From an uncultured virus (IMG/VR IMGVR_UViG_3300043449_002525) (Duplodnaviria; Heunggongvirae; Uroviricota; Caudoviricetes), in IMG/VR virus record IMGVR_UViG_3300043449_002525: a stretch of 60,561 bases of DNA. One strand, given 5' to 3'. The notes beneath the pieces were generated by a model. That model had not been told where the DNA came from. It ran no database searches and worked only from the letters and a program-made list of their open reading frames with translations. Positions 48,213 to 59,179 of the stretch are shown here, in pieces. The translations under genes were made by a program, and so were the position numbers. How positions within the stretch are numbered: the first letter of the stretch is position 1; each line of letters opens with the position of its first letter.

Positions 48213-48443
48213 GTGACAGGGAAGAAGAAGAGCACAGGTCGACGACGACTTGCTGTGGGAGATCTTGTTGAACACATCAATAAGCAGCATCCAGATCATG
48301 GTAAGATCGGCATGGTTACCCGAGTCACTGACCAGACACAGATGATGAGAATAGCTTTTGTGATGGTTGAGGGCACAGAGCGTGTCTGGTTCATGGGTGA
48401 CTTTGTGAAATTAAAGGGAGTCGAAGATGATGAAGCCGTCTGA
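48213..48443 (+). CDS. Small SH3/KOW-like protein
   Basis: LAVGDLVEH...GKIGMV; leaderless promoter TTGATA-18-TATAGT (48178-48207). Confidence 0.6.
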   Translation: MTGKKKSTGRRRLAVGDLVEHINKQHPDHGKIGMVTRVTDQTQMMRIAFVMVEGTERVWFMGDFVKLKGVEDDEAV

Positions 48444-48945: not shown

Positions 48946-49459
48946 GAGAATTGAAGATCAGCCTGCACCCACGGGTGATGGAACACCTGTCTGGGATCTT
49001 GTCGTCTCCGATATGAAGGAGAGAGATAACTTGGGTAGGCAACGCTATGGTACACCTCTCCGCACCTGGAACGGGCGGGATGCGCTGGTCGATGCCTACC
49101 AGGAGATCCTCGACCTTGCTGTCTACGTCCGACAGGAGATTGAGGAGCGGCGGTCGATCCAGCAGATCTGCGAGCACGTGGCTCTCATTCCAGGCGCTGA
49201 AGATTGCACATCCCAGAACGTCCTAGAGACGCTGGGAGAGATTGAAGAACGTGTCCACATGCTTGAAGCATCCAACAAGGATCTGCGGAAGCGCTTGACA
49301 GCACTGCAGAATGAGTCGTCCTACGACGCAGGATTTAGGCGTGGATGCCAGGCGACGCTGGAGCTAGTGGAGCGAGTGCAAGGAAAGCACGTCAGCAACG
49401 AGCTACTTGAGAGTGCGATGAACCTACGGAGCAACCACAGTGGACGCTCGGAAGGATGA
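48938..49459 (+). CDS. Phage protein, possible all-alpha NTP pyrophosphatase-like N-terminus
   Basis: R..LGRQRYGTPL..NGRDALVDAYQEILDLAVY; coiled-coil C-terminus. Confidence 0.55.
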   Translation: MTKRIEDQPAPTGDGTPVWDLVVSDMKERDNLGRQRYGTPLRTWNGRDALVDAYQEILDLAVYVRQEIEERRSIQQICEHVALIPGAEDCTSQNVLETLGEIEERVHMLEASNKDLRKRLTALQNESSYDAGFRRGCQATLELVERVQGKHVSNELLESAMNLRSNHSGRSEG

Positions 49460-49634
49460 GATCCGCGAGGGTGATCTTGTCCGCGTCTGGGAGACGCGAG
49501 AGGGTGTCGTTGTGGGCCGTTATGGCGACGGATACTACGAGGTTCTCGTAAAGCTGCCCCAGGGAAGGTCACTCGTTAGGGCATGTCGGGAGCAGGATCT
49601 CTCTCTTGTGCAGCATCCTGCTGTAAATGAGTGA
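49440..49634 (+). CDS. Small SH3/KOW-like protein
   Basis: IREGDLVRV...GVVV...YEVLV...DLSLV. Confidence 0.6.
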   Translation: MDARKDEIREGDLVRVWETREGVVVGRYGDGYYEVLVKLPQGRSLVRACREQDLSLVQHPAVNE

Positions 49635-51215: not shown

Positions 51216-51443
51216 ATGCAGGCGATCAAGAACCGCTACACACCCGGTGATCTGTACGAAGTGATCGACCAGTTCGGATCTTCAAAGGGTCGCTGCATCT
51301 TCGTGGAGCTCATCGAGCCTGGCACACTCGATCTGGTTCAGGTCGTCCGACCGATGCACTGGCACTTTAAAGTTCTACACAAGAGCAAGATCGAGCTCTA
51401 CGACACGTCGCTGTGGTCGCTTATAGAAGTGTATAGCGACTAA
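51216..51443 (+). CDS. Small SH3/KOW-like protein
   Basis: YTPGDLYEV...KVL...LIEV. Confidence 0.6.
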   Translation: MQAIKNRYTPGDLYEVIDQFGSSKGRCIFVELIEPGTLDLVQVVRPMHWHFKVLHKSKIELYDTSLWSLIEVYSD

Positions 51444-53434: not shown

Positions 53435-53437
53435 GCC

Positions 53438-53466
53438 TTGTAAATAAGGCGCTCCTAGCATATTAT
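53438..53466 (+). promoter_or_regulatory. Sigma70-type promoter
   Basis: TTGTAA-17bp-TATTAT; CTCCT (53452) complementary to SD AGGAG (53473). Confidence 0.65.
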
Positions 53467-53482
53467 TACGCCAGGAGATTAA

Positions 53483-54800: not shown

Positions 54801-55043
54801 ATGAAGGCAGGCGACATCGTCAAGCTGAACAGCTGGTTTCATCAAACTGTCTCAGTATTCCCAGAGCCCAATCCACAGACAACGATTGGTGACATTGAGT
54901 ATCCAAGAGGGACGATTGCACTAATTCTCGAGGTTCTCGACAGTCACGAAGATGACGGCCCAAGCATGAACACGTACATGCGTGTTCTTGTCGGAGGAAA
55001 GGTGGGTTATGTCCGTGCATATTCCTGTGAGGAGATCAAGTGA
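54801..55043 (+). CDS. Small SH3/KOW-like protein (MKAGDIV)
   Basis: SD AGGAGAG; GDIV...ALILEV...RVLVGGKVGYV. Confidence 0.75.
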   Translation: MKAGDIVKLNSWFHQTVSVFPEPNPQTTIGDIEYPRGTIALILEVLDSHEDDGPSMNTYMRVLVGGKVGYVRAYSCEEIK

Positions 55044-55255
55044 ACGTGGGTGACCTGGTCAAGTTCTGGACACCTGCGGTCCCAAAGGGCCTGCAACACA
55101 ATGGGATCATCATAGGCGTCACTCACGAGAATGTGGGTGGCCTGAAGATGGGTAGCATGTATCATGTTCTCACATCCCGTGGGCACATTGTGACAATGAC
55201 TGTGGGTGGCCTGGAGCTCGTGTCACCCGTGCAAGACGACTCGACTGTGGTATGA
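55040..55255 (+). CDS. Small SH3/KOW-like protein (MNVGDLV)
   Basis: GDLV...GIIIGV...YHVL...LELV. Confidence 0.75.
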   Translation: MNVGDLVKFWTPAVPKGLQHNGIIIGVTHENVGGLKMGSMYHVLTSRGHIVTMTVGGLELVSPVQDDSTVV

Positions 55256-55256
55256 T
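55226..55256 (+). promoter_or_regulatory. CCCGTG-type promoter with extended -10
   Basis: CCCGTGCAA...TGTGG-TATGAT. Confidence 0.65.
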
Positions 55257-55275
55257 GTAGCTGTGAGGAGAGGCA

Positions 55276-55476
55276 ATGAAGCCCGGTGACCTTGTGCAAT
55301 ACACTCTACGACGACGAGGTTCGACTGCGCCCTACCCAATCGGGATCCTGCTTGAGATCCGGCCTAAGTCGCATCCACTCATTCGGGAACGCGAGCACGA
55401 CTACATCGTCCTGATCGGTGGCGAGACACGAACTACGACACGACGATATCTAAAACCGATCGAAGAGGCACAATGA
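55276..55476 (+). CDS. Small SH3/KOW-like protein (MKPGDLV)
   Basis: SD GAGGAGAGG; GDLV...GILLEI...YIVLIGG...LKPI. Confidence 0.75.
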   Translation: MKPGDLVQYTLRRRGSTAPYPIGILLEIRPKSHPLIREREHDYIVLIGGETRTTTRRYLKPIEEAQ

Positions 55477-56156: not shown

Positions 56157-56188
56157 CCCGTGCAACCCGACTCGCCATAGGGTACAAT
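56157..56188 (+). promoter_or_regulatory. CCCGTG-type promoter heading the small-gene array (leaderless)
   Basis: CCCGTGCAA-17bp-TACAAT; ATG 6 nt downstream. Confidence 0.65.
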
Positions 56189-56194
56189 TCTACC

Positions 56195-56581
56195 ATGGTC
56201 AAGAAAGGCTACACTGCGATTCCCAGGTTCACCCGCGCTATTGCATGGAAGGGCCGACGTTGTAACAAGAACAGGGTGCGCATCTTCCCTGGGACCGCGG
56301 GCATTGTAGTAGGTGTGAGCTACTCTCGGGGTTACAACTGGCCCAGAGCTGACATTGAGGGTGTGATCCACACGCTTCATCCCTGGGACTGGGAATTCAC
56401 GTCTATCCGGGTGGGCGAGCTCCGACGCTGGAAGGACACCTACGCGAAGTATGCGTTACCGTTTCTTGTCACCAGGATTGTGAGTCTCGTGACATGTGAA
56501 TGTCTCGGCGATGGGAATGTGTTTGGAACATCCTGCAAGTTTCTTGAGGACAACTCGGAGGTGATCAGTGAAACCGGGTGA
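56195..56581 (+). CDS. Hypothetical protein, two SH3-like halves; first gene of the array operon
   Basis: Internal IRVGEL; ends EVISETG* at the first junction. Confidence 0.6.
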   Translation: MVKKGYTAIPRFTRAIAWKGRRCNKNRVRIFPGTAGIVVGVSYSRGYNWPRADIEGVIHTLHPWDWEFTSIRVGELRRWKDTYAKYALPFLVTRIVSLVTCECLGDGNVFGTSCKFLEDNSEVISETG

Positions 56582-56786
56582 CCTCGTCAAACTCAGAGAT
56601 TGCATCCGCTACACGGGCATCGACACGGCTGACGGTCGATTCTTCGATGTCCCGGGCGGTGCAGTCGGCGTCTACATGGGAATTGACACAGATCGAGAGT
56701 ACAACATCTATGACCTGGTCCTCACTAAGGGCAGGTTGGTGAAATGCGCCCGGAGCGTCTGGAGTGTCCTCGATGAAACCCGGTGA
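56568..56786 (+). CDS. Array cassette 1, SH3/KOW-like (MKPGDLVKL)
   Basis: GTG start in junction; ends VLDETR*. Confidence 0.75.
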   Translation: MKPGDLVKLRDCIRYTGIDTADGRFFDVPGGAVGVYMGIDTDREYNIYDLVLTKGRLVKCARSVWSVLDETR

Positions 56787-56970
56787 CCTTGCCCGTCTCA
56801 AGGATATCGGCATCCACAGCGGAGAGATTGTGATGATAGTCAAGGTGCATCCCTGGCGTGATACTCCAAATGCCTTCGGTTCGTGGGCGACAGTTGACTT
56901 CATGTTCGACGGTCAAGTCGTTGAAGAATGTGACTCGAGCTTCCTGGAGGTGATCGATGAACCTGGGTGA
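56773..56970 (+). CDS. Array cassette 2 (MKPGDLARL)
   Basis: Ends EVIDEPG*. Confidence 0.75.
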   Translation: MKPGDLARLKDIGIHSGEIVMIVKVHPWRDTPNAFGSWATVDFMFDGQVVEECDSSFLEVIDEPG

Positions 56971-57184
56971 TCTTGTCAAGCTCGATATTCCCGGCCAGCG
57001 TGCTCACGGAAAGATCGGCATGGTCGTGGGCAAGGAGCTAAAAGCCACCTACGATTGGATGCGGGACCACATGGGTCAACCTGTCAAGTCTTTCAGCTAC
57101 GAGGTCATGGTTGGAACCGAAGTCTGGCGAGTGGGTTATAATGAACTCCTAGAGGAAACGGAGTGGGACGATGAAGCGCGGTGA
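56957..57184 (+). CDS. Array cassette 3 (MNLGDLVKL)
   Basis: Ends WDDEAR*. Confidence 0.75.
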   Translation: MNLGDLVKLDIPGQRAHGKIGMVVGKELKATYDWMRDHMGQPVKSFSYEVMVGTEVWRVGYNELLEETEWDDEAR

Positions 57185-57419
57185 TCTCGTTATCCTGACA
57201 AACTGTAACACTAGGTTCGAGGGTTCGTACGGTTACGAATTCGGTTGTAATCCCAAAGGTGACTTAACGCTAAAAGACGAAGTCTGGGTTCCAAACGGAA
57301 CTATCGGAATGTACTGTGAGGATCCCAAGGACGACGGAGGAAAGTTCGGTGTCCTCGTCCACGGCCGCCTCCTCTGGTTCGACCAGATCGATTCGAGGGT
57401 CATCGATGAAACCGGGTGA
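57171..57419 (+). CDS. Array cassette 4 (MKRGDLVIL)
   Basis: Ends RVIDETG*. Confidence 0.75.
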   Translation: MKRGDLVILTNCNTRFEGSYGYEFGCNPKGDLTLKDEVWVPNGTIGMYCEDPKDDGGKFGVLVHGRLLWFDQIDSRVIDETG

Positions 57420-57597
57420 TCTCGTCAGAATTAGAAGCGTTCTCAAGAACTCCTGGCACCTCTACGATAATGTCGGTATACTGGTCGAGATCAAGGAAGA
57501 GGGGCTTCTTGCGAACCCGAACGTCGTCCTCATTCACGGCCAGTTGCTTCAGTTCAATACATACGATCTTGAGCTTGTAAATGATGGTGATCGATGA
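57406..57597 (+). CDS. Array cassette 5 (MKPGDLVRI)
   Basis: Ends LELVNDGDR*. Confidence 0.75.
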   Translation: MKPGDLVRIRSVLKNSWHLYDNVGILVEIKEEGLLANPNVVLIHGQLLQFNTYDLELVNDGDR

Positions 57598-57788
57598 AAC
57601 CCGGTGACATCGTCCGTTTCAAGAGCGGCACGCCCATCTTCAAGCGTCAGGGTGAGACACTCGCGCTCATCACTCGGGTCGTTCCCCTGGATGAAGGAAG
57701 AACAACTTACCTCTTTCTTCTCATGCCTACCGGCGAAGTGAAGGCGAGAAGGATCGAGGATGTCGAGGTGGTCATTGAAGCCGGGTGA
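57594..57788 (+). CDS. Array cassette 6 (MKPGDIVRF)
   Basis: Ends EVVIEAG*. Confidence 0.75.
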   Translation: MKPGDIVRFKSGTPIFKRQGETLALITRVVPLDEGRTTYLFLLMPTGEVKARRIEDVEVVIEAG

Positions 57789-58008
57789 TCTGGTCATCGC
57801 GAAGGCAGCCAAGGCCAAGCGACGGGATCCACCTCCTGCAATCATGCTCTACAACTGGAGGACGAATGTCTACCACCCGTGGAAGAACGGAAATCTGGGA
57901 ATGATCATCGATCTCGACCCGAAGACGGAAGGTGTGATCGTCATGGCTGACGGGAACGTGGGCTGGGTGTCACAGGTGATCATCGAGGTGACTGATGAAA
58001 CCGGGTGA
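57775..58008 (+). CDS. Array cassette 7 (TTG start, MKPGDLVIA)
   Basis: SD GAGGTGG; ends EVTDETG*. Confidence 0.75.
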   Translation: MKPGDLVIAKAAKAKRRDPPPAIMLYNWRTNVYHPWKNGNLGMIIDLDPKTEGVIVMADGNVGWVSQVIIEVTDETG

Positions 58009-58243
58009 TCTTGTCACAATCCGCAGGATGAACCTCTCCAATACAGCTCGCATCGCCTACATCGAAGTCTACGATAGGTACGACCACATCGCAGTCCCCC
58101 ACAAAAAGAAGTGGGAACACGGTGAGATCGGCGTTCTCCTTGAGGGGCGGGACGACAAGCGGGAGATGGTCCAAGTCCTCCACTGCGGTCAGGTAGGGTG
58201 GGTCGACGAAGAGATGCTGCGGGTGATCGATGAAACCGGGTGA
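57995..58243 (+). CDS. Array cassette 8 (MKPGDLVTI)
   Basis: Ends RVIDETG*. Confidence 0.75.
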   Translation: MKPGDLVTIRRMNLSNTARIAYIEVYDRYDHIAVPHKKKWEHGEIGVLLEGRDDKREMVQVLHCGQVGWVDEEMLRVIDETG

Positions 58244-58421
58244 TCTCTGCATGATCGTGCATCCTGCCAGGCGTGAGTGGAGCGACTCTGGCGTCTGCAT
58301 GATCCTCAGGCCCGTCAGTCATGAGGACGGCATCGACATCTACTCACACTGCGACTGGTGGGTCATGTGGGACGGGCGTGAGACGGCCTGGGCAAAGACG
58401 GACCTGGAGCCGATCGAATGA
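58230..58421 (+). CDS. Array cassette 9 (MKPGDLCMI)
   Basis: Ends DLEPIE*. Confidence 0.75.
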   Translation: MKPGDLCMIVHPARREWSDSGVCMILRPVSHEDGIDIYSHCDWWVMWDGRETAWAKTDLEPIE

Positions 58422-58708
58422 ACTTCTTTCACAGGGTCTATCGCTGGCTCTACGTCTTCATCAAAGGTCACCTGCCGCTAGGCACACTCGTCCAGTTCAA
58501 GCCGAGAATCGGATTTGACGGGAAGATCTTCTGGCGGTCCTCAGGCGTCCCGAGGCGCAACTCAATCGGGATGGTGATCGATGGGTGGCGCAAGAACGTG
58601 CATCCGATGCCGCCAGGTGTGATCAACAAGGGAAGCGTCGTGCTCTTCGACGGTGCGCGATACGAGATGTTTCATTGGGAACTTGAGCCCATCGATGAAC
58701 CCGTGTAA
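58418..58708 (+). CDS. SH3/KOW-like protein with N-terminal extension, last gene of the array operon
   Basis: LGTLVQF...IGMVID...VLFDG...ELEPIDE. Confidence 0.65.
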   Translation: MNFFHRVYRWLYVFIKGHLPLGTLVQFKPRIGFDGKIFWRSSGVPRRNSIGMVIDGWRKNVHPMPPGVINKGSVVLFDGARYEMFHWELEPIDEPV

Positions 58709-58731
58709 ATGGGCGCGACCTGTGGTACAAT
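58700..58731 (+). promoter_or_regulatory. CCCGTG-type promoter with extended -10
   Basis: CCCGTGTAA-17bp-TACAAT preceded by TGTGG. Confidence 0.7.
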
Positions 58732-58750
58732 TGTCTCATAAGGAGGCGAC

Positions 58751-59179
58751 CTGGGCACGAACTACTACAGTGTGAAGCGCGGATTCGACTACGAGTCCAT
58801 CGACTCCTTCTGGGATGTCCGGGGCACTGAGGACTGCATCCACATCGGGAAGAGCTCCGGCGGCTGGTGCTTCAGCCTCCACGTTGTGCCCGAGATGGGT
58901 ATCAACACCTACGAGGACTGGGTCCGCATGTTCATCGATCCCGACCGGATCATCATGGATGAGTACGGTGAAGTGGTCCCGTTCACTGCAATGATCTCGA
59001 AGATCACAGCCCGGCGAGGCAACATCAACAAGCCTCCCACCCCCGAGTTCTTGGAGAACAACCACGCTGAACCGGGGCCCAACGGGCTCGTCCGTCACAG
59101 GATCGAGTTCTTTGAGGACGGGGGCTGTGTGGGTCATGGCGAGGGCACGTATGATTACATTTCAGGCGATTTCAGCTGA
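58751..59179 (+). CDS. Phage hypothetical protein (MGTNYY...HIGKSSGGW type), probable CTG start
   Basis: AAGGAGG 4 nt before an in-frame CTG-GGC-ACG-AAC-TAC-TAC. Confidence 0.7.
   Translation: MGTNYYSVKRGFDYESIDSFWDVRGTEDCIHIGKSSGGWCFSLHVVPEMGINTYEDWVRMFIDPDRIIMDEYGEVVPFTAMISKITARRGNINKPPTPEFLENNHAEPGPNGLVRHRIEFFEDGGCVGHGEGTYDYISGDFS

Follow-up and report, generated by a model that had tools for sequence, protein, structure and literature searches.

An eight-codon frame at the junction of two genes of a shuffled phage mini-gene array is probably an accident of overlapping reading frames

The window, the whole stretch of 60,561 nucleotides analysed here, makes up the final 60.6 kb of a virus record that is 122,561 bp long and has a completeness estimate of 39%. 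The genome codes for terminase, portal, major head protein, tail sheath, DNA polymerase, GroEL, and a sigma factor, as well as a UvsX/RecA-like recombinase (RecA PF00154, E 4.8e-61). The source phage is a large freshwater myovirus: the structural and replication gene set (terminase, portal, tail sheath, and others) indicates a large myovirus, and the 20 runs listed with the stretch are mostly freshwater or drinking-water metagenomes. Toward the end of the window lies an array of small genes, here called cassettes, with a repeat of roughly 30 nt at the joints between them.

54801..55476, + strand: upstream satellite group of three paralogous cassettes
56568..58708, + strand: the cassette array, ten small genes that overlap one another, of which nine begin with an MKPGD-type motif
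56957..56974, + strand: junction of cassettes 2 and 3, scarless, where loci L021 and L027 hold one extra cassette
57406..57597, + strand: cassette 5, 63 aa, ending ELVNDGDR*, with a 4-nt ATGA overlap with the next gene
57594..57788, + strand: cassette 6, 64 aa
57594..57611, + strand: start motif of 18 nt (MKPGD-L/I codons) common to the cassettes, within which exchanges between them cross over, according to alignments and junction-pair identity profiles (35 + 31 pairs)

The junctions between 56195 and 58708 fall into two classes, with an overlap of 14 nt in 8 of 10 and of 4 nt at cassettes 5/6 and 9/10. The 5/6 junction, which the earlier note took to be the only irregular one, is alone only in a narrower sense, as the sole 4-nt overlap among the nine junctions that lead into an MKPGD-type start. 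In the satellite group, the first two cassettes likewise overlap by 4 nt and have a mini-frame at their junction.

The database matches of the cassette proteins are weak. Neither Pfam nor PHROGs gave a family above cut-off for any cassette, and a PDB sequence search returned nothing significant. Pfam SH3_2 and KOW matches on nearby paralogues are weak and sub-threshold, PsaE matches are weak (E about 1), and the ESM Atlas gave viral clusters without names plus one DUF4314 lead at 0.90. From sequence, an SH3/KOW-like fold may be suggested for the cassettes as a lead only.

Two further features lie across the 5/6 junction.

57581..57607, + strand: frame MMVIDETR*, an incidental +1 reading of the cassette 5 tail and the cassette 6 start
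57581..57593, + strand: 13 extra nt of cassette 5 tail (Asn-Asp-Gly-Asp-Arg codons) with a Shine-Dalgarno-like half junction

The stretch 57581–57607 does translate to MMVIDETR*, and, as the earlier note had it, this frame overlaps cassette 6 by 14 nt, ending 14 nt past its start at 57594. The note saw here the scar of an emptied slot. There is no empty slot: cassette 5 is open throughout 57406–57597 and reaches cassette 6 directly through its 4-nt overlap. The sequence of the mini-frame is real and not an assembly error, because contigs from two runs cross the site without gaps (57532–57785 in run X1, possibly the source sample, with 0 differences, 57362–58016 in run X6 with 11 differences). 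A contig from run X3 spans 57370–57623 and reaches 30 nt beyond the 13 nt, where the bridging threshold was 31 nt. The comparison covered assembled contigs from 4 of the 20 runs. Contig joints at 57422 to 57591 (run X2) and 57428 to 57590 (run X1), with sides of 30–36 nt, are compatible with alternative contents of slot 5, as is a different cassette end before 57594 in run X6; none of these was counted as evidence. Depth over cassette 5 is low in runs X2 and X3 and was given no weight.

Each part of the mini-frame has a source in the flanking genes. The Asn-Asp codons of cassette 5 supply its two ATGs, the Shine-Dalgarno half of the junction supplies VID, and the Gly-Asp codons in the MKPGD of cassette 6 supply its stop. 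The start codon had been described as fused to a standard cassette C terminus, but such a fusion does not exceed chance: the codon use of the genome gives a probability of 0.72 that Asn-Asp-Gly contains one ATG or more in this frame, and 8 of 34 upstream families with 4-nt overlaps carry a similar mini-frame.

The general anatomy of the junctions accounts for such frames. The start is preceded in 112 standard junctions by the consensus GAGGTGATC-R, which reads EVI in the 14-nt frame and resembles the complement of the 16S rRNA 3' end. A junction consists of a Shine-Dalgarno-like half (GAGGTGATCR) belonging to the upstream cassette and a start motif (MKPGD-L) belonging to the downstream cassette. 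Most upstream cassettes read through the junction as VIDET[RG]*, giving a 14-nt overlap whose stop is supplied by the downstream Gly-Asp codons, and about one-quarter, cassette 5 included, stop at the start codon, giving a 4-nt overlap. In a survey of 94 loci in which cassettes were chosen by a start-motif regular expression, and divergent ones were missed, 42 of 179 distinct junctions have 4-nt overlaps. The 34 upstream families with such overlaps comprise 8 with an ATG within 45 nt (two of these being homologues of each other), 16 with none, and 10 in which the stop is absent. A loose regular expression for stacked junctions returned mostly normal tails and was uninformative. Because an upstream gene that stops at the ATGA leaves the 14-nt frame empty, any ATG upstream creates a mini-ORF that ends in ET[RG]* or similar; the apparent mini-ORF is a by-product of junction geometry. 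The GDQ ending at a 4-nt overlap is found also in two unrelated families (L055:727-1038 and L074:882-1091), which are independent cases of the ribosome-site half being read in the other frame. The 4-nt junctions of these arrays thus generate false mini-ORFs, and the flagged scar is itself ordinary. We consider it probable that MMVIDETR* is neither a gene nor a recent scar but an accident of overlapping reading frames.

If the frame were instead a gene, ribosomes ending cassette 5 would restart at 57581 or 57584, make an octapeptide, and pass to cassette 6 at the 14-nt overlap. The frame is retained in the window and in loci L023 and L024, but these three copies are close kin, and in L025 the frame is broken. 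Pairing was calculated with a generic anti-Shine-Dalgarno motif. With a 9-nt version of this generic motif, which may not be the host's, the mini ATGs pair at −1.9 kcal/mol compared with −3.1 to −10.8 for the ten cassette starts; with 13 nt of the same generic motif, which again may differ from that of the host, the values are −4.5 and −6.8 to −14.9. By this generic measure the pairing of the mini-ORF is the weakest of the starts tested, and a ribosome-binding site of its own was not found. Restarting at gene overlaps is itself known, reinitiation and translational coupling at ATGA overlaps being described by Huber et al. (2019, PMC6728339). Like the cases given there, the 5/6 junction is a simple ATGA overlap whose Shine-Dalgarno-like motif lies within the upstream gene; it differs from them in that the motif here also marks an exchange point and that most junctions of the array overlap by 14 nt. 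Cassette 6 is already coupled to cassette 5 by this direct overlap and is probably made by termination–reinitiation at the ATGA, and we regard a relay through an octapeptide as very unlikely.

The relatives of cassette 5 place the tail with the cassette rather than with the junction. Besides the window's own copy we have 21 homologues at about 73–94% identity, which end in N-x-GD[RQ] (14), NDDQ (4), NDG (1), or long tails (2); none of the 21 has the standard 14-nt reading. In viral_contigs, queries with cassette 5, with its alignment, and with the outgroup reached nothing closer than distant paralogues (29–46% identity). DNA context, taken from metagenome contigs, is available for the homologues in L023, L024, L025, and L026 and partially in L027. 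Cassette 5 stands before cassette 2 in L023, where its 13-nt tail has one change, and before a cassette-4-like gene in L024, where the 13-nt tail is identical. In L025 a 1-nt insertion converts the mini-frame to MMVDR*, and the L026 homologue (61%), which ends ELVNDA*, lacks an ATG at this place and is followed by no cassette, so that the mini-frame is kept in two of these loci, broken in one, and absent from one. Of eight proteins fetched for the outgroup (63%), six end in NDA and two in NEA. Among families seen with at least two neighbours, 17 of 19 upstream families keep a single class of overlap, as do 13 of 18 downstream families; the two inconstant upstream families include cassette 5, owing to L025. 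Sequence comparison shows the tail to be inherited with cassette 5 and carried to whichever cassette follows. We propose that cassette 5 gained the tail once, long ago; the outgroup ends ELVN[DE]A* and is cassette-less behind in the one locus seen. In L025 another cassette (L025:3190-3387) ends ELEVLEVIDETG, with an in-frame 9-nt doubling just before its junction, a hint that such junctions undergo small off-register duplications.

These comparisons bear directly on the proposal of the earlier note that, in this lineage, a cassette was recently deleted between cassettes 5 and 6 through the GGTGATC microhomology. Its appeal is a resemblance of sequence, and relatives do carry other cassettes upstream of cassette 6: four different genes precede it across the window, L021, L022, and L023. 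The tail, however, is unchanged before other cassettes, and a remnant specific to the 5/6 join is not what we see, the same tail standing before cassette 2 and the cassette-4-like gene. None of the four loci with a complete cassette 5 homologue holds a full cassette between cassettes 5 and 6, no homologue retains a standard end, no indel falls at 57581–57593 among 12 of the 22 contig indels listed, and real deletions in this array are scarless. The microhomology itself makes a testable prediction. GGTGATC occurs in two copies per junction, 17 nt apart, and a crossover between the second copy at one junction and the first copy at the following junction predicts 17 extra nt reading MKPGD[RQ]*, whereas the window has 13. 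This product had 0 matches in viral_contigs (as an exact degenerate pattern, which misses diverged forms) and 0 in 83 loci. The proposed deletion is unsupported; a recent loss between cassettes 5 and 6 is largely refuted and, in our estimate, extremely improbable.

An older event is harder to dismiss. Off-register recombination that predated diversification of the cassette 5 family could have removed nearly all of a following cassette and left an ancient, fixed scar, a history that we think unlikely. In that history, the first four bases of the lost cassette would have joined the next Shine-Dalgarno half, and the remnant would have become the cassette 5 tail. The first ATG of the mini-frame stands at the canonical register of a next gene, LELVND of cassette 5 aligning with LEVIDE of the 14-nt junctions, and the NEA and NDA tails of the outgroup resemble a decayed standard junction; taken together, these features make the tail look like two stacked half-junctions. 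Off-register pairing is made possible by the paired GGTGATC copies, and we infer that the loss of 4 more nt and a single synonymous change could turn the 17-nt product into the 13 nt observed. Against such a history, the direct product has no match in viral_contigs or the 83 loci, extra mutations are needed, and no intermediate was seen; an ancient scar would also be silent on the present dynamics of the 5/6 junction. It differs from a by-product of junction geometry only in how the tail first arose.

The claim that the array is dynamic is borne out, by changes of cassette content among relatives and not by the mini-frame junction. L021, which has 89–97% nucleotide identity to the window over most array blocks, carries another cassette in slot 5, two extra cassettes before cassette 1, and one extra between cassettes 2 and 3. 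L027 has one extra cassette before cassette 1 and another between cassettes 2 and 3. The order in L023 is c5-c2-c4-X-Y-c6-c7-Z-c9. L022 is without cassette 1, and an unrelated 334-codon gene replaces most of cassette 4 together with cassette 5. At the MKPGD start motif, close relatives thus exchange, gain, lose, and rearrange cassettes, and they do so scarlessly, as the alignment at the window's 2/3 junction exemplifies.

Side features of two of these loci may be mentioned. The replacing gene (L022:2846-4000) looks AT-rich and has a weak DUF3761 match (E 0.0009, below cut-off); the 28-codon cassette 4 start left beside it is a true disrupted cassette, unlike the flagged frame. In L021, about 200 nt (L021:5590-5790) are inserted between the homologues of window positions 59179 and 59189, and contigs from run X3 have a loose end there.

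The point of exchange can be placed from identity profiles. In 35 junction pairs that share an upstream family, identity stays at 0.81–0.97 as far as +17, counted from the downstream start, then is about 0.5 between +18 and +29 and 0.24–0.36 further on. In 31 pairs that share a downstream family, it is 0.31–0.47 up to −13, 0.56–0.58 at −12 to −1, and 0.84–0.97 from the start onward. These profiles indicate that the ribosome-site half moves together with its upstream cassette and that exchange takes place within the start motif; finer mapping is impossible because this motif is conserved in all cassettes. The crossover therefore lies within the shared junction of about 18–30 nt, the position shown by these profiles, and would most likely be ordinary homologous or microhomology recombination by the phage RecA/UvsX-like system. 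Since a crossover at the junction keeps the stop, ribosome site, and start intact, no scar is left.

The closest described system is that of the promoter early stem-loop (PeSL) elements, which bring about a shuffling of modules in T4-type phages (Arbiol et al. 2010, PMC2839356). According to that article, phage recombination needs only small (<50 bp) homology, and small non-essential myovirus genes in variable regions are inserted, deleted, and replaced through short conserved linkers, as here; a dedicated integrase was found in neither system, five partial records having been searched here. Gain, loss, and replacement at a conserved linker are all seen in the present array. PeSLs, however, are described there as non-coding promoter and stem-loop elements between genes, whereas the linker here is the coding overlap (ribosome site, start, and stop) between paralogous mini-genes, and individual cassettes have no promoter of their own. 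A promoter and stem-loop between genes is absent from this array, whose 4- or 14-nt overlaps leave no intergenic element. Because its linker is a coding overlap, the array works like PeSL shuffling yet is not a PeSL system.

In integron arrays too, cassettes lack promoters, share one orientation, and are gained, lost, and rearranged, and the phage array shares these properties. It differs in that there are no attC-like non-coding sites, the genes overlap and the junctions are coding, and the cargo is a single paralogous family. Tyrosine integrase (PF00589) and serine recombinase (PF00239) were each found in 0 of 5 records (15–76% complete). Integron cassette arrays are also discussed in PMC2839356. 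No published description of this type of array was found in the literature searched, whose scope excluded most subscription journals and supplements.

One could go further and suppose that these large freshwater phages have an integrase-less cassette system in which exchange takes place at the cassette's own first six codons together with the preceding gene's ribosome site, a dedicated activity, beyond generic recombination, targets the motif, and the doubled half-junction of cassette 5 is the fossil of a rare off-register crossover. Such a system would let any cassette be inserted, lost, or moved while still being translated; we hold the proposal to be doubtful, if worth keeping in mind. Regardless, the array represents linker-mediated gene shuffling with a coding linker, scarless exchange, and a gene order that differs between close relatives, and it lets modular phage evolution be put to the test at the scale of single genes.

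Single small genes with a GDL-type motif lie outside the array at 48213–48443 (KOW match, E 0.054), 49440–49634, and 51216–51443, and these scattered genes probably belong to the cassette family. Similar promoter-like stretches, recognized by eye only, are present at 53436–53470, 55229–55256, 56160–56190, and 58704–58732, before the AAA ATPase, the third satellite cassette (a3), the gene preceding the array, and the gene following it, and they may be phage early promoters that bound the variable block.
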